In this document: piece after piece, positions 9,795 through 64,000 of the stretch | Layout: each line of letters opens with the position of its first letter | Numbering within the stretch: the first letter of the stretch is position 1 | Origin: Candidatus Niyogibacteria bacterium | GTDB taxonomy: Bacteria; Patescibacteriota; Minisyncoccia; HO2-45-28 | DNA: 64,000 nt | Assembly: GCA_016181935.1 (NCBI GenBank) | Contig: JACOYI010000005.1 | Coordinates: 595-64,594, forward strand | Direction of reading: 5' to 3' | Made by a program: the position numbers and the translations under genes | Notes under the pieces: model-generated | Seen by the model: only the letters and a program-made list of their open reading frames with translations | Told to the model about the DNA's origin: nothing | Databases searched by the model: none

Positions 9795-10244
9795 ATGGCG
9801 GATTTTGATATGATTCGTGAGCTCCGGGCTCGGTGCGGCGCATCGATATCGCATTGCAAGAAGGCGCTTGAAGAAACCGGGGGCGATCGGGAAAAGGCGC
9901 TTGAAGTTTTGCGTAAAGAAGGAGCGGATATTGCCGCAAAAAAAGCATCCCGCGCGACGCATGCGGGCGTTGTTGACGCGTATGTGCATGCGGACCGGCG
10001 ATTGGCCGCTCTCGTAAAAGTAAAATGCGAAACGGATTTTGTCGCGCGCAACGACGAATTCCGCGCGTTCGCGCATGACCTTGCGATGCAGGCGGCGGCG
10101 ATGGGGGCGCGAACGTCTGAAGAATTGTTGGAACAGCCGTTCATTAAAGACCCCAAAAAAACCGTACGCGACCTTGTAAAAGAGATCATCGCAAAATTCG
10201 GCGAGAACGTGGAGGTTATTTCCGTGTCGCGCCTTGAGATTTAA
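9795..10244 (+). CDS. tsf: Elongation factor Ts (short form, 149 aa)
   Basis: Directly downstream of rpsB. N-terminal UBA-like ELRARCGASISHCKKALEETGGD and TDFVARN motif. Confidence 0.85.
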   Translation: MADFDMIRELRARCGASISHCKKALEETGGDREKALEVLRKEGADIAAKKASRATHAGVVDAYVHADRRLAALVKVKCETDFVARNDEFRAFAHDLAMQAAAMGARTSEELLEQPFIKDPKKTVRDLVKEIIAKFGENVEVISVSRLEI

Positions 10245-10681
10245 TGTTTATGGAGACGCTCTCTATGTATCTGGCGATCATGGGCGGGGGCATTTTGCTG
10301 GCCGCCGTTCTTGTGGGGCGCTATGTCCCGAGCGTCAAATCGTTATCGGTGCCGGATCAGCGAAAATGGCTGGATCGCCTGCCGCCGTTCCTCGAATTCG
10401 CCGCCGATTTTTGGCAGAACCGGATGCAGCCGCCATTCACGCGGTTTTGGATCCGATACATTCACCCGATCTTTTTGGGGGAAGGAGAAAAGTGGTCGCG
10501 CCGGTCCCGCATCGTGGCGCTCCGGATCGAGCGGATGTTTCACCGGTTGTCGGATTATTTTCGCGGCAAGCGCATCGCGATGCAAGGGAATGGCAGTTCG
10601 GTGGAGGCGGCACAGGGGAAGAATTCCCAGTTTTGGAGCGAGATCCAGCGGCTGAAATCATCGGATGAGAAAAAGAAATAG
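10244..10681 (+). CDS. Hypothetical membrane-anchored protein
   Basis: 145 aa. N-terminal TM (LSMYLAIMGGGILLAAVLVG). Start overlaps the tsf stop (TAATG). Confidence 0.5.
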   Translation: MFMETLSMYLAIMGGGILLAAVLVGRYVPSVKSLSVPDQRKWLDRLPPFLEFAADFWQNRMQPPFTRFWIRYIHPIFLGEGEKWSRRSRIVALRIERMFHRLSDYFRGKRIAMQGNGSSVEAAQGKNSQFWSEIQRLKSSDEKKK

Positions 10682-10686
10682 GAATT

Positions 10687-10882
10687 GCCGCCTTAGCTCA
10701 ATTGGCAGAGCAACACTTTTGCCCGCCCGCCTAAGACGCGCCGTCCTAGCTCAATTGGCAGAGCAACAGTTTTGTAAACTGTAGGTTCCGGGTTCGACCC
10801 CCGGGGACGGCTCAACAATCGGCGCTAAGGCGCGTCGGGCGCGGTAAAGTGAAGGTTCTCGGTTCGACTCCGAGAGGCGGCT
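10687..10882 (+). tRNA. Interrupted tRNA gene: 5' half about 10687-10722 and 3' half about 10843-10882, separated by an insert containing tRNA-Thr(UGU). Anticodon ambiguous (GGU-Thr or UGC-Ala depending on the junction)
   Basis: Acceptor GCCGCCT pairs 7/7 with AGGCGGC 190 nt away. D-arm, anticodon stem (ACACT/AGTGA) and T-arm (CTCGG-TTCGACT-CCGAG) are all present in the two halves. Confidence 0.5.
10740..10812 (+). tRNA. tRNA-Thr (anticodon UGU)
   Basis: Hand-folded cloverleaf: acceptor GCCGTCC/GGACGGC, D-stem GCTC/GAGC, anticodon stem ACAGT/ACTGT, loop TTTGTAA, T-arm CCGGG-TTCGACC-CCCGG. Confidence 0.85.
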
Positions 10883-10894
10883 CTCAAAAAGAAA

Positions 10895-10935
10895 ACCCGA
10901 GCAGTTATGCTCGGGCATTTTGTTCGGCGGTTTTT
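10895..10935 (+). terminator. Rho-independent terminator (CCCGAGCAGTTATGCTCGGG + T-rich)
   Basis: 8-bp stem followed by CATTTTGTTCGGCGGTTTTTTCG. Confidence 0.6.
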
Positions 10936-11043
10936 TCGTATCGCCTATACGCTTTGGAAATCAAGGCGTTCAAGGACACGAGGATGATATCCAGTGACAA
11001 GAGAATGATATGGTCTGCAAAATTTTAAGCGATTCGTGATAAA

Positions 11044-12279
11044 ATGAAGATAATGAAAAAGAAGCGCGTGGTCATCATCGGCGGGGGGTTTGCGGGCGTG
11101 CAGTGCGCGCTGGACCTCGCACGTCACCCCGTTGATCTCGATGTCATTCTCATCGACCGCGACGGATATCATACGTATCACGCCGATTTTTATAAACTCA
11201 TTACATCGGGCCATGGGCCGCTGCATATCCCGCGCGAGAAGTTCCGGCTCGCGTTCTCGACGGTCGCGCTCGAACTCGCCGAAATTTTTGAAGGAAAACC
11301 GAACGTGGAATTGGTGCGGGGGGATGTCGTCGCCGTTCATCCGAGCGCGAATGCGGTGGAATTGGCGGACGGAGAGCGCATCGCATACGATATTTTGGTC
11401 GTGGCCACGGGTTCGGTCACGAATTTTTCGGTTCCCGGACTCCGGACGCGTGCGTTCGAATTGAAATCGCCGGAAGATGCGCTCACTATCCGCAATGCCA
11501 TTGATGAGGTTTTTGCGCGCAAAGCGAAGCACGAAAAAATTTCCATCGTCATCGGCGGCGGCGGATTCTCGGGATGCGAGGCGGCAGGGGAGATCGCGGT
11601 GTGGTTGCCGAAACTCGCGCGTGAACACGGGCAGCCAGCCGGGAACGCCGAGGTGACCATTGTTGAGGGTGCGCCCCAGCTTTTAATGTCGGCGCCCGCG
11701 TGGTTTCGCAAAAAAACCGAGGCGCGGCTTCTGGCGCTCGGCGTGCGGATCATTTTTTCAAATTTTGTTGTCGGCGTCCGCGACGATGCTATTGATTTAA
11801 AAAGCGGGAACGCGGTCTTGTTCGATATTTTGATCTGGACCGCCGGGGTCAGGGCGCATCTCTTGGCCGAGAAAATCACCGGCGCCGCGCTTGCAAAAGG
11901 GAGTTGCATCGTGGTGGACCCGTATTTACGCGTCGGCAATTTCAAGAATATCTTCGCGGTCGGCGATATTGCGTTTTGCAAAGGATTCGGCGATAAACCC
12001 CTGCCGATGCTTGCACAAACGGCGATCTCGCAAGGGCGCTACGCGGCGTACGCGATCCATCGGTTATTTCACGACCGCAAGACATTTCCGTATCATCCGT
12101 ATCGTCCCCAGTTCATTATTCCGCTTGGCGGGCGGTACGCGCTCGCTTATGCAAGGGGGTTTTCATTGGAAGGATGGCTGCCGTGGGTTTTGAAGCGCGC
12201 GGTCGCGCTCAGGTATTTCATGAGTATTTTGCCGTTCGGGAAAGCGCTCCGCGTGTGGTTGCGCGGGGTGCGGATATAA
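11044..12279 (+). CDS. ndh: Type II NADH dehydrogenase (NDH-2) / FAD-dependent pyridine nucleotide-disulfide oxidoreductase
   Basis: 411 aa. Two Rossmann GxGxxG motifs (VVIIGGGFAG; IVIGGGGFSG) and a C-terminal membrane-association helix. Confidence 0.85.
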   Translation: MKIMKKKRVVIIGGGFAGVQCALDLARHPVDLDVILIDRDGYHTYHADFYKLITSGHGPLHIPREKFRLAFSTVALELAEIFEGKPNVELVRGDVVAVHPSANAVELADGERIAYDILVVATGSVTNFSVPGLRTRAFELKSPEDALTIRNAIDEVFARKAKHEKISIVIGGGGFSGCEAAGEIAVWLPKLAREHGQPAGNAEVTIVEGAPQLLMSAPAWFRKKTEARLLALGVRIIFSNFVVGVRDDAIDLKSGNAVLFDILIWTAGVRAHLLAEKITGAALAKGSCIVVDPYLRVGNFKNIFAVGDIAFCKGFGDKPLPMLAQTAISQGRYAAYAIHRLFHDRKTFPYHPYRPQFIIPLGGRYALAYARGFSLEGWLPWVLKRAVALRYFMSILPFGKALRVWLRGVRI

Positions 12280-53115: not shown

Positions 53116-55026
53116 ATGGCAAAAATATTAGGCATTGATTTGGGAACGACGAACTCGGCGATGGCGGTCGTGGAGGGCGGCGAGTCGCGCATCATCGAGA
53201 ACCGCGAGGGCGTGCGCACCACGCCGTCCATTATCGCGGTCTCCAAAGCGGGCGACCGGCTGGTGGGACTCTTGGCCAAGCGCCAAGCGGTGACGAATCC
53301 GAAGAATACGATTTACTCGGTCAAGCGGCTCATCGGTCGGCGATTTGACGACGAGATGGTCCAGCGCGACAAAAAATTGTTGCCGTATGAGATCCGCAAG
53401 GCGGACAACGGCGGCGTGGAGGTCAAAGTGGGTGACACATGGCTCCGCCCCGAGGAAATTTCGGCGATGGTGCTCCAGAAATTGAAGGAAGACGCCGAGG
53501 CGAAATTGGGTGAGAAAATCACGGAAGCCATCATCACGGTGCCCGCATATTTTGATGACGCCCAGCGGCAAGCGACCAAGGCGGCGGGCGAGATCGCGGG
53601 GCTCACGGTGAAGCGCATCATCAACGAGCCGACGGCGGCCGCACTCGCGTACGGACTCAATAAAAAGAAAAACGAGAAAATTGTCGTCTACGATTTCGGT
53701 GGCGGCACGTTCGACGTGTCGGTGCTTGAAATTGGCGATGATGTCATCGAGGTGAAAGCCACCGACGGTGATACGCATTTGGGCGGTGATGATTTTGACC
53801 AGAAAATTATCCAGTGGGCTATTGGCGAATTCAAAAAAGAATCGGGAATCGATGTGTCAAAAGACACATTGGCACTTCAGCGATTGAAAGAAGCGGCGGA
53901 GCGCGCCAAGCACGAATTGTCGGGCGCATCCGAGACCGAAGTGAACATCCCGTATTTGTCGTCCGACGAATCGGGTCCGCGGCATTTCCTGAAAAAAATG
54001 ACGCGCACCGACCTCGAAAAACTGGTGGGCGAATATATCGAGCGCTCCATCGAAATCACCCAGCGCGCGGTGAAGGCGGCGGGATTTGCGCTCACGGATA
54101 TGAACGAAGTGATTTTGGTCGGCGGCCAGACGCGCATGCCCGCGATGCAGGACGCGGTCAAGAAATTGTTCGGCAAGGAACCGAACAAGTCCATCAATCC
54201 GGACGAGGTGGTGGCAGACGGCGCGGCGGTGCAGGGCGGCATCATGATGGGCGATGTGAAGGATGTGCTTTTGCTTGATGTGACGCCGCTCTCACTCGGT
54301 ATCGAGACGCTCGGTGGCGTGTCCACCAAAATCATCGAGAAAAATACGACGGTTCCGGTATCGCGGACACAGGTGTTTTCGACCGCGGCTGACAATCAGC
54401 CGCAAGTGGAAATCCATATTTTGCAGGGCGAGCGCGAAATGGCGAAGGATAATAAAACCCTCGGGAAATTCGTTTTGGATGGCATTCCGCCCTCCCCGCG
54501 CGGCTTGCCGCAGATCGAGGTGTCATTCGACATTGATGCGAACGGCATTCTGTCGGTAAAAGCGAAGGACAAGGGAACACAAAAGGAGCAATCGGTGCGC
54601 ATCGAGGCGTCGAGCGGACTTTCGAAGGATGATATCGAGAAAATGAAGCGCGATGCGGATGCGCATGCGGAGGAGGATAAAAAGGCGCGCGCATTGATAG
54701 ACGCGAAAAACACGGCGGATAGCATGATTTACGCCGCGGAAAAGGCGTTGCGGGACGCGGGCGACAAAGCGCCGGCCGATGTGAAAAAAGCGGTGGAGGA
54801 GGAATTGGCGAAGCTGAAGGAAGTAAAGGAAAAAAGTACGGACGCGGCGGAGATCGAAAAAGCGGCCGCGGCATTGTCGCAGAACCTCTCAAAAATCGGC
54901 GAGGCGATTTACAACGCTGGAAAGCAGGAGGCTGGAGGGCCGGATGCTAGAAAGACGGAAGACAGCCAGTCCAGTCAAGATGAGCCAAAGGACGTTAAAA
55001 GCGAGGATGTGGATGGAAAGAAATAG
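53116..55026 (+). CDS. dnaK: Chaperone DnaK (Hsp70)
   Basis: 636 aa. [19 protein letters not shown]-terminal acidic tail. Confidence 0.95.
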
Positions 55027-55226
55027 CGCTTTCGCATAACCACTTTTTCAACACTGCTCCGATGCTTGAAAATGATAGTCGTTTTGCGCGCGAAATCTTA
55101 ACGCGGTTCCCGTTCCTCCCTTCGGGATTTTCCGACCGCTAATTTCGCTTCAAAACTCCTTCATTTTCAAAGCATCTCCGCAAAGTTTCAAAAGTGGCTA
55201 TGCTTCAGCTCTTGGGAGATAAAAAT

Positions 55227-55547
55227 ATGGCAATAACACTGAATAAGCACGATAAAAAAATTGTTGATAGAGTAAGGGCGACCATTGAAGCTGCTTATAA
55301 ATCAGCAAATTTTCCATCCGCAGTGGCAAAAAGCATTGCGAGTAGGGCGACCTATTTTAGAAACAAAGGTCGTTCGCAAGCGATACGACGGCATCCATTT
55401 GAAGGCATTTGCGAAGCACACAAGAAACCATTGAAGAGGATAGATGCGCATTTGGATGAGATGGGTCCATTGGGATACGATGGACCAGTTAGATGGATTT
55501 GTCCGCTTGCGAATAATAGCGGTAAGAGATCTTGTGGAGAATTTTAA
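55227..55547 (+). CDS. Hypothetical protein on the AT-rich dnaK-dnaJ insert
   Basis: ATG 55227 preceded by GGGAGA. Basic, Cys-containing C-terminus (WICPLANNSGKRSCGEF). Low confidence. Confidence 0.3.
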   Translation: MAITLNKHDKKIVDRVRATIEAAYKSANFPSAVAKSIASRATYFRNKGRSQAIRRHPFEGICEAHKKPLKRIDAHLDEMGPLGYDGPVRWICPLANNSGKRSCGEF

Positions 55548-55548
55548 A

Positions 55549-55600
55549 TGAAAGATTACTACAAAATTTTGGGGGTAGGGGGATTGATTCAAAGTTTATC
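55549..55600 (+). other. Duplicated, truncated dnaJ 5' end (MKDYYKILGVGGLIQSLS*)
   Basis: ATGAAAGATTACTACAAAATTTTGGGGG is 23/25 identical to the true dnaJ start at 56087-56114. Marks the left junction of an insertion. Confidence 0.5.
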
Positions 55601-55620
55601 TTAAGGTAAACTTAGAACAT

Positions 55621-55845
55621 ATGAAAAACATCGTAGGATTGAAGGAATTGCGGGGGAATATCGAGAACTATATTTCCGAGGTGAAGAAGGGAAAGTCGTT
55701 CATCGTAGTGCGCCGGTCAAAGCCGGTGCTTAGGATTTCCTCGCCGGACGAGGATGAATCCATGTGGGAGACCGTGATTGATTTTACGAAGATCCGGAAG
55801 GGCGGTATTCCGGTGGATGAATTGCTGAAACGTTTGAGGGCATGA
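55621..55845 (+). CDS. Type II antitoxin, Phd/YefM-like
   Basis: 74 aa. Overlaps the downstream toxin by 4 nt. LRGNIENYISEVKKGKSFIVVRRSKPV pattern of Phd/YefM antitoxins. Confidence 0.55.
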   Translation: MKNIVGLKELRGNIENYISEVKKGKSFIVVRRSKPVLRISSPDEDESMWETVIDFTKIRKGGIPVDELLKRLRA

Positions 55846-56084
55846 TGGATTCGATTGATAAGGAGTTTGCCCGATTGACTGAAAAGGAGAAAAAGCACGT
55901 CAGGGCAATTTTTGTCCAGCTGAAGGAGGGCGATCAGAGGGGATTGAATGTTAAAAAAATAAAAGGCCGTGAGGATGTGTTTCGTGTGCGGAAGGGCAAG
56001 CTAAGGGTTATTTATCAATTACAGGACAAAACGGTTCATATTTTAGCGATTCGATATCGGCGAGAAGATACCTATAAATTTTAA
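55842..56084 (+). CDS. Type II toxin, RelE/ParE family
   Basis: 80 aa. VFRVRKGKLRVIYQLQDKTVHILAIRYRREDTY matches the RelE/ParE C-terminal signature. Confidence 0.7.
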   Translation: MMDSIDKEFARLTEKEKKHVRAIFVQLKEGDQRGLNVKKIKGREDVFRVRKGKLRVIYQLQDKTVHILAIRYRREDTYKF

Positions 56085-56086
56085 CT

Positions 56087-57157
56087 GTGAAAGACTACTA
56101 CAAAATTTTAGGGGTGGAGAAAGGGGCGGGGAAGGAGGAGGTCAAAAGGGCCTACCGGAAATTGGCGCACCAACATCATCCCGATAAAAAAGGAGGGGAT
56201 GAGGCCAAGTTCAAGGAAATCAACGAGGCCTACTATGTGTTGGGTGATGATTCGCGCAGAGCGCAATACGACCAGACCGGCCGCACATCGTTTGGCGGCG
56301 GAGGCGGGCCGCAGAGCGGGTTTGATTTCGAGGACATCTGGCGCCAATTCGGCGGCGCCCAAGGAGGCGCACGGGGCGGTGATTTTGCCGACATCTTCGG
56401 CGATATTTTTGGGTTTGGGGGCGGAGGCCAGCGCCAGAAACGCGGCGCGGATATCGCGGTGGATATCGAGCTTCCGTTCGCGGAAGCGGCATTCGGGACG
56501 AATCGCAAAATTTCACTTCGCAAAACCAATGCCTGCAAAGAGTGCGATGGGAGCGGGGCAAAATCCGGCACCGGAACGGTGCGCTGTGAGATTTGCAATG
56601 GGTCGGGTACGGTGCGCGAGAATCGCCGCTCGATGTTTGGTTCGTTCACGGCGCTCTCCGAGTGTTCCCGCTGTCACGGAAAAGGGGAGATGCCGAAGGA
56701 GCCCTGTCCGCAGTGCCGCGGCGAGGGGATCATGCGAAGCGAGGAAACTATCGAAATCGCGGTTCCCGCGGGCATCGATAACGGCGAGATGATTCGCGTG
56801 ACGGGCGCGGGCGAAGCGGTGGCGGGCGGACGCGCGGGCGACCTGTATGTGCGCATCCATGTGCGGCCCGACCCGCGATTCCATCGCGAGGGAATGAATT
56901 TGATATCGGACGTGGAAATCCCGTTCACGGATGCCGCGCTCGGAACCGAAAAAGTATTGGAGACGCTCGACGGAAAGGTTAAGATGGAAATACCCGCAGG
57001 AACGAATTCGGGCGATATGCTCCGGATCCGTGCTCGCGGCATCCCGAAGGCGCATGGACGCGGGGATCTCTTGATCCGCGTCACGGTCAGGACGCCCAAA
57101 AAATTATCGCGCAAGGCGCGCGAACTGATGGACGAACTGCGCCGAGAGGGGATTTAA
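56087..57157 (+). CDS. dnaJ: Chaperone DnaJ
   Basis: GTG start (the ancestral ATG version survives as the fragment at 55549). J-domain HPD, G/F region, four CxxCxGxG zinc-finger repeats. Confidence 0.9.
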   Translation: MKDYYKILGVEKGAGKEEVKRAYRKLAHQHHPDKKGGDEAKFKEINEAYYVLGDDSRRAQYDQTGRTSFGGGGGPQSGFDFEDIWRQFGGAQGGARGGDFADIFGDIFGFGGGGQRQKRGADIAVDIELPFAEAAFGTNRKISLRKTNACKECDGSGAKSGTGTVRCEICNGSGTVRENRRSMFGSFTALSECSRCHGKGEMPKEPCPQCRGEGIMRSEETIEIAVPAGIDNGEMIRVTGAGEAVAGGRAGDLYVRIHVRPDPRFHREGMNLISDVEIPFTDAALGTEKVLETLDGKVKMEIPAGTNSGDMLRIRARGIPKAHGRGDLLIRVTVRTPKKLSRKARELMDELRREGI

Positions 57158-58375: not shown

Positions 58376-58442
58376 CCGAAGCTCCTTTTGAGAAGTTTTT
58401 TCAAGGTCGGTCTAAAGGTTCTATAGCACCTGCATTCCGCCT

Positions 58443-58469
58443 TGTCAAGCGCGCAGTAAAAACGTATAC
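58443..58469 (+). promoter_or_regulatory. Promoter TTGTCA-17-TATACT for tRNA-Lys
   Basis: Good hexamers, 9 nt upstream of the mature tRNA 5' end. Confidence 0.45.
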
Positions 58470-58478
58470 TGATTCCGA

Positions 58479-58551
58479 CCGCCCATAGCTCAAGTGGTAG
58501 AGCAGCTGCCTTTTAAGCAGTTGGTTGTAGGTTCGAGTCCTACTGGGCGGA
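58479..58551 (+). tRNA. tRNA-Lys (anticodon UUU)
   Basis: Acceptor CCGCCCA/TGGGCGG, D-stem GCTC/GAGC, anticodon stem GCTGC/GCAGT with loop CTTTTAA, T-arm GTAGG-TTCGAGT-CCTAC. Confidence 0.85.
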
Positions 58552-58733
58552 CTGGTTGATTTATCAATTAAGTTTTTCACCAGGACTCGAACCTTTGGGG
58601 TGGGGTCGGGAGGGAACGGTAGCGCCCTCCCGTGGAGGAAAACAGCGACGCCGAGCTTATCGAGACGGAGCGCAAGAAACCGAGGGTTTCTTGGGAGCGC
58701 GAAGCGCGACAGGTTCTAGGAGCGAAGCGACGG

Positions 58734-58750
58734 AGTCCTACTGGGCGGAC
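58734..58750 (+). repeat. 17-bp direct repeat of the tRNA-Lys 3' end (AGTCCTACTGGGCGGAC): att-like integration scar
   Basis: Identical to 58536-58552. An inverted T-arm fragment (GGACTCGAACC) also lies at 58573-58588. Confidence 0.6.
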
Positions 58751-58751
58751 C

Positions 58752-60515
58752 ATGCAACAGTGCCAAAATTGCAAAACTGATTTCGGGATAGAGCCGGAGG
58801 ATTTTGAATTTTACGAAAAAATGAACGTTCCGCCGCCGACGTGGTGTCCGGAGTGCCGGATGGTGCGGCGGTTTTTGTTTCGCAACGAACGCGCGTTTTA
58901 TAAACGTACGTGCGGTTCATGCAAGAAAGACGTCGTTTCCGTTTTTGCTCCGGATGCAAAGCGCAACGTGTATTGCCACACCTGTTACCGGTCCGACACG
59001 CGAGACCCGTTTCGCTACGGCAAAGAGTTCGACTTTTCAAAGCCGTTTTTTGAGCAATTGCGGCAATTATGGGAGGACATTCCGGTTCCCGCGGTTTTTA
59101 CGGAAAATTGCGTTGACTCACCGTACACAAATCATACGCACGATAGCAAAAACAGCTATCTCATTTTTGGCGCTTCGGCCGTGGAGGATTCCGCGTATGG
59201 CGCCCGCCTTGCCAATATTCGGGATTCATTCGACGTGACCGCCGGAGGCAAACTTGAGCAATGTTATGAGGACATTTCATGCAACGAGTCGCAGAAACTT
59301 TTTTTGAGCGTCCGGAGCGAGAACTGTCTCAATTCCTATTTTCTGGAGGATTGCCGGAATGTGAGCGACAGTTTCGGGTGCGTGAATTTGCGGAATAAGC
59401 AATATCACATTTTCAACAAGCCGTATACGAAGGAGGATTACGAAAAAACGCTAGCGCAAATGAATATCGGGAGCCGCGCCGCGCTCGCCGAATTGCGGAG
59501 GAAGGTCAAAGAGTTTTCCCTGCGATTCCCGCGGTGGTTCGCGCATGTGGTGGGTAGCCAATCGGTGACGGGGGATAACATCGTCAATTCCAAGAATTGC
59601 CGGTTTTGCTTCAATGTGTACGGGAATCTGGAGGATTGCGCGTTTGCGATCAATGCCCTTGATTTGAAGGACGGGTACGATGGGTATGGATTTGGCGCCG
59701 GAGCCGAACTTTTGTATGAGGGGGCGGATTCCGGCGTGAACGCGGGGAACATGGCATTCACTCTTTTCGTACACAGTTCGCACCATGTCCGGTATTGTTT
59801 CAATTGTCACGGATCGTCGGATCTCTTCGGGTGTGTCGGGTTGCGTAGCCAGAAATACTGCATTTTGAACCGGCAATACACACAGGAACAGTATGACGAG
59901 CTTGTCGGAAAGATCGTCCAGCAGATGAATGAGCATCCATACACGGATGCGCAAGGGCGGATATTCCGGTACGGCGAATTTTTCCCGCCGGATTTCTCGA
60001 CCTTTGCCTACAACGAATCAGCCGCGCAGGAATATTTTCCGCTGACGCCAGAAGAGGCGCGCCGGAAAGGGTTTCGCTGGCGCGACCCAGCGGAAAAGAC
60101 GCATGCCATTACCATTCAGCCGGAAACGATACCGGACGCAATACGCGGGGTCCCGGATTCGATTCTGAAGGAAACACTTGGTTGTGCGCATCGGGGAACC
60201 TGCAACGACCAATGCACAAACGCGTTCCGCATCATCCCGATGGAGCTCGCATTTTACAAAAAAATGGATCTTCCTCTGCCGGATCTCTGCCCGAATTGCC
60301 GTCATTATCGGCGGCTCGCGCATCAAAATCCGTATCGATTATGGCATCGAAAATGCCACTGCGCGGGCGCGCATTCCTCGAACAGCGTCTATCAAAATCA
60401 AAGCGCTCATTTTCACGCCAGTGCGCCCTGTCCGAATGAGTTCGAAACCACCCATGTGCCCGAGCGTCCCGAGATCGTTTATTGCGAGCAGTGTTATCAG
60501 GCAGAGGTGGCGTAG
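58752..60515 (+). CDS. Large Cys-rich protein with duplicated N-/C-terminal zinc-ribbon modules and two internal ~110-aa repeats; no recognised family
   Basis: ATG 58752 abuts the tRNA-derived repeat; an alternative GTG at 58632 would add 40 aa. N- and C-terminal modules share C..C...F.I..E..FY.KM..P.P..CP.CR..RR. Internal repeats share SKN...ED.A...LFGCV.LR...Y.I.N..YT.E.Y. Confidence 0.6.
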   Translation: MQQCQNCKTDFGIEPEDFEFYEKMNVPPPTWCPECRMVRRFLFRNERAFYKRTCGSCKKDVVSVFAPDAKRNVYCHTCYRSDTRDPFRYGKEFDFSKPFFEQLRQLWEDIPVPAVFTENCVDSPYTNHTHDSKNSYLIFGASAVEDSAYGARLANIRDSFDVTAGGKLEQCYEDISCNESQKLFLSVRSENCLNSYFLEDCRNVSDSFGCVNLRNKQYHIFNKPYTKEDYEKTLAQMNIGSRAALAELRRKVKEFSLRFPRWFAHVVGSQSVTGDNIVNSKNCRFCFNVYGNLEDCAFAINALDLKDGYDGYGFGAGAELLYEGADSGVNAGNMAFTLFVHSSHHVRYCFNCHGSSDLFGCVGLRSQKYCILNRQYTQEQYDELVGKIVQQMNEHPYTDAQGRIFRYGEFFPPDFSTFAYNESAAQEYFPLTPEEARRKGFRWRDPAEKTHAITIQPETIPDAIRGVPDSILKETLGCAHRGTCNDQCTNAFRIIPMELAFYKKMDLPLPDLCPNCRHYRRLAHQNPYRLWHRKCHCAGAHSSNSVYQNQSAHFHASAPCPNEFETTHVPERPEIVYCEQCYQAEVA

Positions 60516-60566
60516 TTGGTGAGAATAAAAAAGAGCCCTAACGTATGTCGGGGCTCGTTCGCTTTT

Positions 60567-60806
60567 TTACCGCCAGTAGCAATGGTCTTCCAGCCATTCG
60601 CGACTTTCTTCATTCCACATATCATTGCCGTCCGCGGTTTCGTTGAATGCATCCTCGCCGCTTTCAGAGTCGTCAGTGTATTGCTCGCTGTACCCTTCCT
60701 GCGGATTCATAACGGGCGCGTAGCAGGGCGGAAGCCGGCTGGACGGCGACCGGGCTGCGCATGCCGACAGAAAAAAAAGAACGAAAAACGCGGCGAATAT
60801 TTTCAT
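60567..60806 (-). CDS. Small lipoprotein (79 aa), acidic
   Basis: MKIFAAFFVLFFLSAC lipobox, then a Glu/Asp-rich mature region. GGAGA RBS. Confidence 0.45.
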   Translation of the reverse strand: MKIFAAFFVLFFLSACAARSPSSRLPPCYAPVMNPQEGYSEQYTDDSESGEDAFNETADGNDMWNEESREWLEDHCYWR

Positions 60807-60930
60807 GGCATCTCCCGCGAATACGAGTTCCATTTCCAGCATACGCGATGCAGTGTTATAAGCAGAGGTGACCTAGCAATAATTGTGGTTTGTGCTATTG
60901 TATGGCAAGATTTTTGACAGGAGAAACCGA

Positions 60931-61329
60931 ATGTACGCCAAGCCCGTTTCGGACGCAGTTTCCCGAATTGAGAATGCCCTGAAAAGATTTTTGGAGTCAA
61001 AAACTGTGGGCGCAATCGCGGAATCATGGAGGCATGATATGCCGGAAGTTTCCGCGCGCTGGAAAGGAGAGGACGGCATTGAGCGGAACATCGTATTTTT
61101 AGTGCACGCGGAAACTGTTGAACTCGAAGTTAACGCTTGGAAAGACGATCAAATCAACCGGAAACGGCATTGGGGAAATTTCCGCGTTGCGATTCTCACG
61201 CATCAATGTGATAACGCGAATTTTGATACCGCGCTCGCCGCCTTACTGGAATTCGCGTACAAAACGATTTCTACGGTTTCGATCGATCAATTAACGAAGG
61301 TCAGCGATCTTCCCTTGGCTACGAATTGA
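60931..61329 (+). CDS. Hypothetical cytoplasmic protein (132 aa)
   Basis: ATG 60931 preceded by AGGAGAAACC. No recognisable motifs. Confidence 0.45.
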   Translation: MYAKPVSDAVSRIENALKRFLESKTVGAIAESWRHDMPEVSARWKGEDGIERNIVFLVHAETVELEVNAWKDDQINRKRHWGNFRVAILTHQCDNANFDTALAALLEFAYKTISTVSIDQLTKVSDLPLATN

Positions 61330-61359
61330 ACGACCATCCAATGCGGTGGTTGTTTTTTT

Positions 61360-61399
61360 GTACTATAAAACTTTGACGGCCGTCAAAGTTTTATAGTAC
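61360..61399. repeat. Perfect 40-bp AT-rich palindrome (GTACTATAAAACTTTGACGG|CCGTCAAAGTTTTATAGTAC)
   Basis: 20+20 bp perfect inverted repeat, preceded by a T7 run. Lies between the 60931 ORF and the fabH-like gene. Confidence 0.55.
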
Positions 61400-61522
61400 T
61401 TAGTTTCGAAAAGTGGAATTCCTATTCCAGCACAGGATAATTTGACAGAATAATAAAATTGTGCTATTTTGGATGATAACAAACCATCGTTTTTTGACAG
61501 CTTACTTCCGAAAGGAGACCCG

Positions 61523-62611
61523 ATGAATCCGCTTTCGATTTTGGGAACCGGAGCGTACGATGCGTTGCCGGTCATTGATAACGGGCCCCTCCTTGATGTG
61601 TTGGGGGTTCCGCTGGAAAAGCACGGCTGGCTTCCCGATGCAACGGGCATTACGGGACACCGGCTGAATTTTTGCTGTGCGACGGCTTCCAAATTGACGC
61701 GCGAAACGTCGTGGGATTACGCATTTGAGGCGGCGCGCCAGGCCCTGCAAAGCTCCGGCGTTTCTCCAAAAGAGATCGATCAAATCTGTTTGGCGACCTG
61801 CACTCCGCGCGTTCCGCATTTTACTGCGGATACGATCGCGCTTTGCGGGGCGCTCAAGCTCCGGCCGGATGTCGTGTGGAGCCAGTGGGACGGCGGTTGC
61901 GCGGCGCTCGCGAACGTTTTCCGCGAGGTCAAGGCGTACGCGAACGGGAATCCGAACTGGACGGCGCTGATCGTGGCGACCAACGATGTCAGCTCCTTTT
62001 TGGAGCGTAATCTGGAATTGTACCGGTATCGGCCCGCGCGCAAAGGAGAAAAAGATTGGGCGCGCGACGCGTGGAAATCGCCCGCGATCTTCGCGGATGG
62101 CGCTGCGGCGGCTGTTTTGGGGCCGGCAGACGATCGGCACTTTTTGACGACGACGCATTGCGCGCAGGATGGCGGCGAAACTCCGCTTGTCGCGCACGAC
62201 GGCGGCGGCGCCCTCTATCCGTCATGCGCAGAAACGCAGAGCCGCCACATCTATCTCATGTACACACGCGATATCGCGTTGCAGTTTCCGATCGCGATGG
62301 GCCGCGTTTTGTCCAACCTTTTTCACGCGCACAATCTTCCGCCGACGGAAGTCGGCCAACTTTTTCTGCATCAGGCCAACTTCCGGTTCGTTGAATCGTT
62401 CGCGGACGCACAGCAGATCCCGATGGCGCGGGTTCCCCATAGTGTCGACAAGATCGGCAATCTGGTGAGCGCGTCGACCTTGGATCTTTTAAATCGCGAA
62501 TTTCGGAGCGAAGAAGGGTTGCCGACGGACAAGCCGATCGCATTTGCGGTTGTCGGCGCCGGAATGGTGTGGGGCGGCGCGTTTTTCATGCCCGCCTCGG
62601 CTTCGCCTTAG
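61523..62611 (+). CDS. 3-oxoacyl-ACP synthase III (FabH/KAS III)-like thiolase-fold enzyme
   Basis: ATG 61523 with AAAGGAGA RBS. Catalytic Cys (WDGGCAALA), His (FLHQANFRF) and Asn (IGNLVSAST) in KAS III order. Confidence 0.7.
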   Translation: MNPLSILGTGAYDALPVIDNGPLLDVLGVPLEKHGWLPDATGITGHRLNFCCATASKLTRETSWDYAFEAARQALQSSGVSPKEIDQICLATCTPRVPHFTADTIALCGALKLRPDVVWSQWDGGCAALANVFREVKAYANGNPNWTALIVATNDVSSFLERNLELYRYRPARKGEKDWARDAWKSPAIFADGAAAAVLGPADDRHFLTTTHCAQDGGETPLVAHDGGGALYPSCAETQSRHIYLMYTRDIALQFPIAMGRVLSNLFHAHNLPPTEVGQLFLHQANFRFVESFADAQQIPMARVPHSVDKIGNLVSASTLDLLNREFRSEEGLPTDKPIAFAVVGAGMVWGGAFFMPASASP

Positions 62612-62726
62612 CGAGACGGGCCCCTCGCCTAAATTCGGCGAGGCGTGGCCTCAATAATTCTTTGTCCGTTCAATGCGCCCGATGGTACGATACAAGTATC
62701 TCGGGCGTTTTTCTTTTTCATTCATT

Positions 62727-64000
62727 ATGGCCATTCAAGATCTTATTTTGCTCACGGTCGCGATGATGAATATCGTGCTGGGGTGGCTCGTGTTTTGGAA
62801 TAACCACCGCACCCCCGTGACGCGGTGGTTCGCGGTTTTTGCGTGGTCCTTGGCGCTGTGGGCGATGACGCTTGTTGGATTCCGGACAATTCCCGATGTC
62901 CGGCTCGCCGAAATTTTTCTGAAACTCGCGTACGCATCCGCTGTCGGAATTGCGGCATCTATAACGGCATTCGCGCATTATTTTCCGGACCGCAGCGCGC
63001 TCGGCCGGTTCAAGCGATGGCTTTTTATCGGGACCACCGCCGCGATCGCTGTGATCGCTCTTTTGCCGAATGTATTGATCACGCGCATCATCGAGGTCGG
63101 GCAGGTCCGCATCGGCGTTCAGGAATACATCGGCTACTCCGTATTCAGCATTTATTTTCTGGTTTACTTTTTCGGCGCGCTTTATTTTTTGTATCGTCGG
63201 TTCACGGGTGCGACGGGGGAAACGCGAACGAACATCGGTTACATTATCTGGAGTATTCTTACCGCCGGCGTTTTCGGCGTTATTTTTAATTTGATCCTGC
63301 CGTCGCCGTGGATCCAGGAATGGCGGTATACATGGATGGGGCCGCCGTTCACGGCGATCATTGTTGTTGCGGTCGCCTACGCGATTGCGAAGTATCGCCT
63401 GATGGATGTGCGGATTTTGGCCGCCGAACTTCTCACTATTACGATCGTTTTCCTGCTTTTCATCCAGAGTATTTTTTCGAGCGATGCGCGCGAGTTTTTC
63501 ACACGCATTATTTTCTTTTTGCTCGCCACGCTTTTCGGGGCGTTTCTCGTCCGGAGCGTTCGTCGCGAAGCCGAGCAAAAAGAGCGGCTCGAGCAATTGA
63601 CCAAAGAATTAGAAAGCGCGAATACGGAATTGAAAAAACTCGACCAATTAAAATCCGATTTTCTATCGTTCGCATCCCACCAGTTGCGCGGGCCGCTATC
63701 CGCCGTCAAGGGGTACGTTTCTATGATAACGGAGGGGACGTACGGCGCGATCACGCCGAAGATCGCGGACGTGCTGGGCCGCATCTACAAATCCAACGAG
63801 CAACTGATTCGGCTCGTGGATGATTTTTTGAATCTGGCGCGCATTGAGGAGGGGCGCATTGAGTATGCGTTCGCGCCCGTTTCTTTGGATGAATTGGTGG
63901 ACGACGTGGTGAGATCGCTCGCGGATAATGCCTTCAAAAAAGGCCTTGAATTGCGATGGGAACACCCGTCGCCGCCGTTGCCCGTTATCGTGGCGGACGC
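62727..64000 (+). CDS. Sensor histidine kinase with multi-TM N-terminal domain (3' end outside window)
   Basis: Not in the ORF track because no stop falls inside the window. About 6 TM helices, then HisKA H-box FLSFASHQLRGPLSAVKGYVSMI. Confidence 0.75.
   Translation, partial: MAIQDLILLTVAMMNIVLGWLVFWNNHRTPVTRWFAVFAWSLALWAMTLVGFRTIPDVRLAEIFLKLAYASAVGIAASITAFAHYFPDRSALGRFKRWLFIGTTAAIAVIALLPNVLITRIIEVGQVRIGVQEYIGYSVFSIYFLVYFFGALYFLYRRFTGATGETRTNIGYIIWSILTAGVFGVIFNLILPSPWIQEWRYTWMGPPFTAIIVVAVAYAIAKYRLMDVRILAAELLTITIVFLLFIQSIFSSDAREFFTRIIFFLLATLFGAFLVRSVRREAEQKERLEQLTKELESANTELKKLDQLKSDFLSFASHQLRGPLSAVKGYVSMITEGTYGAITPKIADVLGRIYKSNEQLIRLVDDFLNLARIEEGRIEYAFAPVSLDELVDDVVRSLADNAFKKGLELRWEHPSPPLPVIVAD

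Follow-up and report, generated by a model that had tools for sequence, protein, structure and literature searches.

The stretch of DNA analysed here, referred to as the window, comprises 64,000 nucleotides of a Candidatus Niyogibacteria genome (assembly GCA_016181935.1, contig JACOYI010000005.1). Toward its right-hand end a tRNA-Lys gene is followed by a second, partial copy of its own 3' end and then, one base later, by the ATG of a gene encoding a large, Cys-rich protein. A preliminary description of this locus had interpreted the repeat as the remnant of an integrase-mediated insertion, and the protein as a mobile-element arrival and candidate for an accessory or defence function. The features that make up the junction, in order along the window, are the following.

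58442-58470, plus strand: match to a sigma-70-like promoter (TTGTCA-17-TATACT) just 5' of tRNA-Lys; a consensus match only.
58479-58552, plus strand: tRNA-Lys(UUU), identified by ARAGORN (ttt) and by the Rfam tRNA model (72.3 bits); CCA is not encoded in the window copy.
58535-58552, plus strand: left copy of the 18-bp direct repeat, starting within the T-loop and ending one base beyond the discriminator.
58553-58732: 180-bp insert, the sole DNA between the repeat copies; unique in the window and missing from a Niyogibacteria relative.
58582-58594, minus strand: inverted 13-nt T-arm-like fragment (AGGACTCGAACCT) within the insert, 100% complementary to 58529-58541.
58632: in-frame GTG upstream of the Cys-rich gene, inside the insert; probably unused.
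58733-58750, plus strand: right copy of the 18-bp direct repeat; it represents the ancestral 3' end of the tRNA, and CATG comes next, just as it does in the relative.
58752-60515, plus strand: open reading frame (ORF) of the Cys-rich protein, with 587 amino acids (aa), 31 Cys and eight CxxC pairs; its ATG lies one base after the repeat.

The sequence landmarks given in the preliminary description are real, with some correction of their extents: the direct repeat of the tRNA 3' end is 18 bp long (58733-58750 for its right copy) rather than 17, the inverted T-arm fragment occupies 13 nt at 58582-58594 rather than 58573-58588, and a large Cys-rich ORF does begin right after the repeat. The perfect repeat (GAGTCCTACTGGGCGGAC), whose left copy opens in the T-loop at GAGT, has two matches in the 64 kb even when three mismatches are allowed, where shuffled sequences lead one to expect none. 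Inserted DNA is bounded by a direct repeat of a tRNA 3' end, the arrangement by which tRNA-integrated islands are recognized. The insert itself has a G+C content of 0.57 (0.54 for the window), an unremarkable predicted fold (z = -1.24) and no Rfam family, its sole match (Ms_AS-8, E = 0.04) being dismissed. No copy of it was found elsewhere in the window or in the related loci that were fetched. A minus-strand "tRNA-Arg with a 112-nt intron" called in the insert by ARAGORN, at 60% stringency with introns allowed, was judged spurious.

The history of this junction is most directly read from the closest relative, a Candidatus Niyogibacteria metagenome-assembled genome (GCA_016177385.1, contig JACOVJ010000009.1; loci L001 and L008 in our set), whose version of the Cys-rich protein is 91% identical to that of the window. 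Locus L001 lacks the repeat, and tRNA-Lys directly abuts the Cys-rich gene. The tRNA gene there reads ...GAGTCCTACTGGGCGGACCATGCAG, its encoded CCA ending at nt 181, a base that also serves as the A of the ATG, and the junction reads ...GGGCGGACCATG, the end of the tRNA overlapping the start codon. In BLASTN alignments the window tRNA (58479-58552) matches nt 105-179 of L001, and homology restarts exactly at 58733 (L001 nt 162), continuing through the gene at 88% identity; downstream, a FabH-like gene and then a seven-transmembrane (7TM) histidine kinase follow in an order common to the two genomes. The junction in the relative, together with the homology resumed at 58733, argues that the ancestral state was a tRNA-Lys gene abutting the Cys-rich gene; and since the end of that tRNA overlaps the ATG, the gene was present first and the 198-bp scar was inserted between the two. 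The gene begins past the right-hand repeat and therefore lies outside whatever was inserted. We hold with considerable confidence that 198 bp, made up of 180 bp and the 18-bp duplication, were inserted at the tRNA-Lys 3' end, independently of the gene. The notion that a mobile element brought in the protein is contradicted by this comparison, as the gene lies outside the repeats and a relative without them has its tRNA running into the same ATG. Downstream, the FabH-like gene and the 7TM histidine kinase are likewise kept where the repeat is missing.

The tRNA genes of the two genomes also differ in ways of separate interest: the anticodon stem shows a compensatory T:A to C:G change between the window and L001 (105-181), and the CCA encoded in the tRNA-Lys gene of L001 has been lost as an encoded sequence from the window copy. 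A scan of the locus found no promoter-like match between tRNA-Lys and the ATG, and the sequence is suggestive of a gene co-transcribed with tRNA-Lys, in which case its leader would now be longer. The next-closest homologues (P0002 and P0003) are situated at contig starts, with no upstream sequence to compare, and the exact protein, in a 587-aa or a 627-aa form, has no record in public assemblies.

In the account we favour, the scar would be the remnant attL/attR pair of a site-specifically integrated element, since almost wholly deleted, which had inserted between tRNA-Lys and a gene already adjoining it. As in known integrative elements of tRNA genes, where attL comprises the intact tRNA and attR a 3' fragment, the intact tRNA lies upstream, the direct 18-bp repeat runs from T-loop to 3' end and the insertion is missing from a relative; unlike in those elements, a mere 180 bp are enclosed, with neither integrase nor cargo, and the large gene stands outside. 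Of the integration remnant in the preliminary description, what is upheld is that the copied tRNA 3' end resembles a scar of site-specific insertion. Such a scar is an ordinary kind of feature. Several observations nevertheless count against this account. No integrase or other element gene lies between the repeats, and the 180 bp contain no credible ORF. The tRNA-Lys gene of the relative is a CUU isoacceptor, differing at five positions from the UUU gene of the window, and the 104 nt 5' of it cannot be aligned to the window. Exact-word scans of IMG/VR with the left end, right end and hairpin of the insert revealed no related element, nor did scans of JGI metagenomes with its left end and with the tRNA-end/ATG junction find a match. 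These leave some, smaller, probability for a more complicated rearrangement of tRNA-Lys genes or for an assembly that was wrongly joined at the 18-mer. (A single 21-mer match in IMG/VR, within the AT-rich contig L088, has no flanking similarity and was attributed to chance.)

The differing anticodons, the unalignable upstream segment, the lack of an integrase or recognizable element sequence, and an insert that matches nothing searched would all suit a rearrangement between tRNA-Lys isoacceptor loci, replication slippage or an assembly artefact at the 18-mer, rather than an integrase scar. We nonetheless consider such an origin improbable. The block of identity spans the T-loop to just beyond the discriminator, and tRNA-targeting tyrosine integrases reportedly cross over in the T-loop/3' end; an intact tRNA on one side and a 3' fragment on the other, in direct orientation, are what an attL/attR pair is expected to leave; and homologous recombination between two tRNA genes would leave no duplication.

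With the gene set apart from the scar, the nature of its product can be considered on its own terms. The segments of the protein, and one feature beyond it, are located as follows.

58761-58883, plus strand: N-terminal zinc finger 1, zf_Tbcl-like (aa 4-44), with ligands C4, C7, C32 and C35.
58890-58994, plus strand: N-terminal zinc finger 2, zf_Tbcl_2/TIGR04272-like (aa 47-81), with C54, C57, C75 and C78.
59085-59471, plus strand: core repeat R1 (aa 112-240), of 12-residue periodicity, with AlphaFold2 confidence (predicted local distance difference test, pLDDT) of 62-78.
59553-59933, plus strand: core repeat R2 (aa 268-394), which duplicates R1 and closes with LFGCVGLR...YCILN..YT.E.Y and a long helix.
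59934-60176, plus strand: the most conserved stretch of the family (aa 395-475), with YGEFFPxE.SPF.YNE..AQEYFPL and G..W.D.
60177-60512, plus strand: C-terminal module of two zinc fingers (aa 476-587), duplicating the N-terminal one, with additional C478, H480, C537, H553, H555 and C560.
60533-60568, plus strand: possible terminator, a GC-rich hairpin (GAGCCC..GGGCTC) and then a T-run after the stop codon; read by eye, its loop of more than 8 nt having been missed by the scan.

The arrangement first described, in which zinc modules at either end bracket two repeats, is supported by pairwise comparisons within the protein: the N-terminal module (aa 7-82) matches the C-terminal one (aa 488-585) with E = 3e-14, and R1 (aa 131-238) and R2 (aa 279-393) are 34% identical (E = 4e-14). 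The earlier remark that the protein has no recognizable family was also essentially right, since no Pfam, NCBIfam, PADLOC or PHROGs model matches it above threshold, and the matches that fall below are to zinc fingers at aa 47-81. There, zf_Tbcl_2 (PF23477) scores 24.8 bits against a cut-off of 27, TIGR04272 scores 20.9 against 36, and the spacing of C54, C57, C75 and C78 is an exact CxxC-x17-CxxC; the same zf_Tbcl_2 model is found at the extreme C-terminus of one relative (P0019, aa 564-589). The companion model zf_Tbcl (PF13451; cut-off 24 bits) matches aa ~4-44 in 30 of 60 relatives, with the window protein unreported, and among the ten members for which its scores are listed a single one passes the cut-off (P0111, 26.4 bits). 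Weak Pfam matches to Med15_N, DUF6565 and Radical_SAM_N, scattered across members, were dismissed as noise. Both ends of the protein resemble zf_Tbcl and zf_Tbcl_2 proteins in having a zf_Tbcl-like finger followed by a CxxC-x17-CxxC finger, and differ from them in that the window protein scores under the curated cut-offs and the fingers make up less than one third of its length; the known examples are small proteins or tails, likewise without established function. A CxxC-x17-CxxC domain has been shown experimentally to bind zinc in small proteins of M. mazei (PMC12704099). From their sequence, the terminal finger pairs are predicted to be of treble-clef type.

Conservation across 132 family sequences singles out particular parts of these modules. 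C4, C7, C32 and C35 are retained in 98-100%, the second N-terminal site in only about half, and C478, C488, C513, C516, C535, C560, C578 and C581 of the C-terminal module in 94-99%, the loop bearing C537, H553 and H555 being facultative. Invariant residues (G408, E409, F410, P412, Y420, E422 and W443) cluster between the repeats and the C-terminal module. Within R1, a CxxCxxCxxC motif (positions 201-210) is 80-92% conserved in the family, and the window protein retains only C201 and C210 of it. The hydrophobicity autocorrelation of R1 plus R2 peaks at lags of 12, 24 and 36, and each core repeat consists of roughly nine x-[N/D]-[S/C]-x-[Y/F] units; the core is probably a Cys-laddered, solenoid-like domain of 12-residue period, present in two copies. 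Beta-solenoid and beta-helix repeat proteins, among them left-handed beta-helix acyltransferases such as GlmU, the heads of trimeric autotransporters, CsgA and ice-binding proteins, count among the closest known kinds. An AlphaFold2 model built with 60 sequences has a mean pLDDT of 82.5 and a predicted template-modelling score of 0.81; pLDDT is 85-95 in aa 361-587 and in the two zinc modules, and 62-78 in the repeats. The conserved stretch at aa 395-475 reaches 85-93 in the full-length model and falls below 50 when modelled in isolation; this motif is probably buried against the repeats. Neither Foldseek searches of the PDB with this model nor sequence profile searches of the PDB gave a match, and no known catalytic fold or motif was detected. 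No transmembrane or hydrophobic segment (maximum Kyte-Doolittle value over 19 residues, 0.84) and no signal peptide were found; the lack of a hydrophobic segment, together with an isoelectric point of 6.3, argues for a soluble, cytoplasmic protein. Two more specific identities were rejected. A 4Fe-4S ferredoxin-type site would need a complete Cys motif, which is missing. An HUH relaxase was considered in light of H553-x-H555, present in ~80% of members, and set aside as no relaxase Pfam or fold match was obtained; the HxH loop is wholly deleted in 24 of the 132 family sequences (e.g. P0116). The recognizable parts of the protein, treble-clef-type fingers and solenoid-like repeats, are of known kinds in a new arrangement.

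Relatives of this protein are abundant. Significant matches in a word-indexed search number 2,702 proteins. The best 120 are mostly 570-635 aa long (three, of 551-566 aa, seem to be cut at the N-terminus) and 46-54% identical to the window protein, save for the relative at 91% and two others at 61-62%. Named entries among these 120 are all "hypothetical protein", and carry labels of Niyogi-, Lipton-, Nomura- and Pacebacteria and of Paceibacterota. A hidden Markov model (HMM) search covering 1.84 billion representatives, clustered at 50% identity, found 4,910, 3,677 and 2,201 clusters at E values up to 1e-3, 1e-10 and 1e-30, respectively, the top 150 being for the most part full-length, at about 530-625 aa, with shorter fragments among them; species-representative genomes contain at least 577 confirmed family loci. 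Record titles among the loci listed include Giovannoni-, Jorgensen-, Staskawicz-, Kaiser- and Sungiibacteria, RAAC4_OD1_1 and others. All lineage-specific titles are of Parcubacteria type, the group in which NCBI taxonomy places Niyogibacteria, and many others are generic, such as "uncultured Candidatus Saccharibacteria". By contrast with this breadth, tblastn of the family gave no match in 50,697 phage or 72,556 plasmid records, PADLOC assigned the protein to none of its families, and PHROGs offered a best E value of 0.021 with no significant stretch.

Many of these genomes carry the family as tandem arrays. Within 3 kb on either side of 83 related loci we counted 172 family ORFs (173 copies with that of the window), and 49 of the 83 loci have two to five copies, nearly always co-directional and often abutting; one locus (L094) has five in a single 22-kb stretch. 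Copies drawn from multi-copy loci match best in another genome in 89 of 90 cases, and the median identity within a locus is 43%, as compared with 55% for the best match between genomes. As judged from these sequence comparisons, the paralogues of most genomes appear to be ancient and tandem. The G+C content of the gene itself is normal for the window. We are accordingly left in little doubt that it is native to the chromosome, has come down by vertical inheritance and belongs to a very large family spread across Parcubacteria. Two points temper that statement as regards breadth: the spread across taxa is judged from record titles, which are often generic, and two short contigs are labelled Gammaproteobacteria, probably through mis-binning. 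As a sequence the protein has precedents, a GenBank entry at 91% identity and relatives by the thousand; the family is uncurated, uncharacterized and without a structural relative. Our reading of the literature on PF13451, DUF8128, zinc proteins of Parcubacteria and cysteine-rich paralogues of the candidate phyla radiation (CPR) found no description of it, and an earlier survey had noted that Parcubacteria-enriched families are "primarily hypothetical proteins" (bioRxiv 10.1101/335083).

The genomic company of the family bears on what it might do. The expectation that homologues would also sit beside tRNA genes was not borne out: one locus in 60 has a tRNA, a tRNA-Ile, within 300 nt upstream. 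Neighbours include TsaE and PolA, SmpB/tmRNA, ArgRS, IleRS (in 5 loci), PheRS and L10/L12, an M23 peptidase and a Mur ligase, and in two genomes mreB, mreC and PBP2 precede an array. The outstanding neighbour is an ATPase of 480-670 aa with matches to TrwB_AAD_bind, TraG-D_C, T4SS-DNA_transf and DUF87. This TrwB/VirD4-like ATPase (PF10412, PF12696, PF02534) occurs in 20 of the 83 loci. Of the 119 array flanks that are visible, 15 have it directly adjoining and in the same orientation, and in three further cases it stands between family genes; the gaps are 3-264 nt, with one exception at 601 nt. Every other cluster of neighbours reaches three at most in either flank position. A genome is expected to have about two such genes, and 25 of the roughly 380 ORFs neighbouring the family are of this kind, about 25 times the expected share given our own estimate of 700-1,000 genes per genome. 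In the subtype of about 590-670 aa, the C-terminus carries the CxxC-x17-CxxC finger seen in the family. A DUF8128 protein precedes arrays in 7 loci and a membrane protein of 170-185 aa does so in 4, and in two loci (L092 and L094) the VirD4/TrwB-like ATPase has DUF8128 as an N-terminal fusion, which suggests that DUF8128 is a membrane anchor or partner of these orphan coupling-protein homologues. No virB4 or other core gene of a type IV secretion system (T4SS) was seen at the ATPase-linked loci, apart from weak hits to T4SS_pilin-like genes within 10 kb in L091. A survey of Patescibacteria recorded 5,713 VirD4-like type IV coupling protein (T4CP) homologues in 2,918 genomes, only 148 of them near virB4 and with relaxases rare, and concluded that exaptation "cannot be ruled out" (PMC12102498).

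Some of these loci have features of their own. DUF8128 also occurs as a separate gene upstream of arrays, followed by the 170-185-aa membrane protein, for example among L091, L092 and L094, and CutA1 recurs in 5 loci beside DUF8128/ATPase genes. In L093 (ENA ERZ27254846, k141_1939735) a family member at 10001-11788 lies between secY, at a gap of 8 nt, and adk, with an overlap of 4 nt, and map follows; this copy resides within the S10-spc ribosomal-protein operon, an unusual site for a lineage-specific gene.

Tentatively, we propose that the protein may be a rigid multi-zinc scaffold or adaptor acting with a VirD4/TrwB-type ATPase and DUF8128. Its four terminal fingers, carried on a rigid pseudo-symmetric body, would hold a nucleic acid or protein partner at each end, and it would work with the orphan hexameric ATPases of this type in Patescibacteria and with their DUF8128 membrane partner. 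The shared finger and the operonic linkage suggest such joint work with a DUF8128-anchored VirD4-like ATPase, and the ancient paralogues suggest alternative or co-assembling subunits. The likeness to the adaptors that partner T4CPs such as VirD4, TrwB and TraD consists in the co-directional placement of a family gene beside a TrwB_AAD_bind/TraG-D_C ATPase; the family differs in having no similarity to relaxases or to known T4CP adaptors, and the partnership is drawn from gene order. Combining the scar, the resident gene and this mode of action gives what we consider, with moderate confidence, the best overall explanation of the locus. A more specific role as the missing cytoplasmic partner of the orphan VirD4-like ATPases, in substrate recognition, DNA/RNA handling or as an assembly scaffold, is more doubtful.

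A number of observations fit the proposed partnership poorly. An ATPase within 3 kb is lacking at three quarters of the loci (63 of 83), and the 64-kb window holds no homologue of it; the window and the Niyogibacteria relative each have a single copy of the family gene at this locus; three usual R1 cysteines are replaced in the window protein (S135, V204 and S207); and translation genes (tRNA, aminoacyl-tRNA synthetases, a ribosomal operon, SmpB/tmRNA) are frequent neighbours as well. Several of these points favour the main alternative, which we rate as scarcely less probable than the scaffold and in which the protein is a stand-alone enzyme or a factor associated with RNA or translation, engaging tRNA, rRNA or the ribosome through its four fingers, and its adjacency to the ATPase is a lineage-specific accident. 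Besides the 63 loci without a nearby ATPase, this alternative can draw on the very high, enzyme-like or machine-like conservation of G408 and the other invariant residues through W443, and on the roll of translation neighbours, from the tRNA-Lys overlapping the start codon, ArgRS/IleRS and SmpB/tmRNA to the order secY, family gene, adk, map, and PheRS, L10/L12 and TsaE. In small CPR genomes dominated by translation genes, however, such neighbours are expected by chance, and no single translation gene is found at more than 5 loci, against 20 for the ATPase. Nor does the protein have a detectable catalytic fold or motif of any known kind, and several ancient paralogues per genome would be unusual for one housekeeping enzyme.

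Linkage to the ATPase could also be turned around, the paralogues being substrates or effectors that it recruits for export to the host by type IV-like machinery, and their diversity serving different hosts. The family genes are operonic with T4CP-like ATPases, their multi-copy arrays resemble the VirB2 pilin arrays of Patescibacteria (PMC12102498), and T4SS_pilin-like genes lie no more than 10 kb away in L091. We regard this as very unlikely, inasmuch as orthologues are about 50% identical across candidate phyla and the paralogues are ancient rather than fast-diversifying, the protein has no signal peptide or transmembrane segment, a zinc-bound protein with ~30 Cys would be a poor fit to unfolding-dependent export, and most T4CPs of Patescibacteria are not near virB4 (PMC12102498). 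Weakest of all, and in our judgement scarcely tenable, is the original notion of cargo from a tRNA-integrated mobile element with an accessory or anti-phage defence role: a real att-like duplication of the tRNA-Lys 3' end adjoins the gene, its other flank is a second lineage-specific indel of about 870 bp and the recurrent ATPase neighbour has weak HerA/mad8-type PADLOC hits, but the gene lies outside the repeat-bounded segment, the order of tRNA, gene, FabH-like gene and kinase is kept in a relative without the repeat, the protein has no PADLOC or PHROGs hits and the phage and plasmid records no tblastn hits, the arrayed paralogues are ancient, orthologous across candidate phyla and placed among housekeeping genes, including ribosomal and cell-shape operons, and the G+C content of the gene is normal, all of which makes such a role unlikely. 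The preliminary description had itself named, as grounds for giving it up, a confident match to a housekeeping family with conserved synteny in relatives lacking the tRNA repeat; the synteny was found, and the confident housekeeping match was not.

Elsewhere in the window, two other small regions differ from their surroundings. The second indel, at ~60530-61405, occupies about 870 bp between the zinc-finger gene's stop codon and the FabH-like gene's promoter, where the relative has a 167-bp spacer. It has a G+C content of 0.47 and no Pfam hits, and holds a lipoprotein-like ORF of 91 aa (60567-60842, minus strand), an ORF of 148 aa (60883-61329) and a perfect 40-bp palindrome (61360-61399). Beyond it lie the FabH/chalcone-synthase-like condensing enzyme (ACP_syn_III_C) at 61469-62611, whose start is probably at about 61520 (MNPLSILGTG) rather than 61469, and the 7TM-sensor histidine kinase at 62673-64000; the bacterial group to which Niyogibacteria belong is generally considered to be without fatty-acid synthesis. 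Upstream of tRNA-Lys, a Phd/YefM antitoxin (55621-55845) and a ParE toxin (55842-56084) are found between dnaK (53116-55026) and dnaJ (56087-57157), as is an unassigned ORF of 117 aa (55194-55547). The toxin-antitoxin pair has a G+C content of 0.45 (window, 0.54), and the region 55194-56084 looks like a small insertion into the chaperone operon.

The story of an island with a defence gene fails, and a sizeable portion of microbial dark matter is left in its place: a family of about 4,900 clusters, which lacks a curated model over two thirds of its length and has no solved structural relative. The genomes concerned are well under 1 Mb in size, and up to five ancient tandem copies of the family are kept, sometimes inside a ribosomal-protein operon. 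Its recurrent neighbour belongs to the ATPases that are mostly unlinked to secretion systems and of unknown role in about 2,900 Patescibacteria genomes (2025 survey, PMC12102498); by virtue of that recurrent VirD4-like neighbour, the family provides a concrete, testable lead on the role of the ATPase in these episymbiotic bacteria. If the proposed partnership is true, the family, the ATPase and DUF8128 would together constitute an undescribed, Parcubacteria-specific, membrane-associated machine for translocation or remodelling, one that would take up 1% or more of some tiny Parcubacteria genomes.

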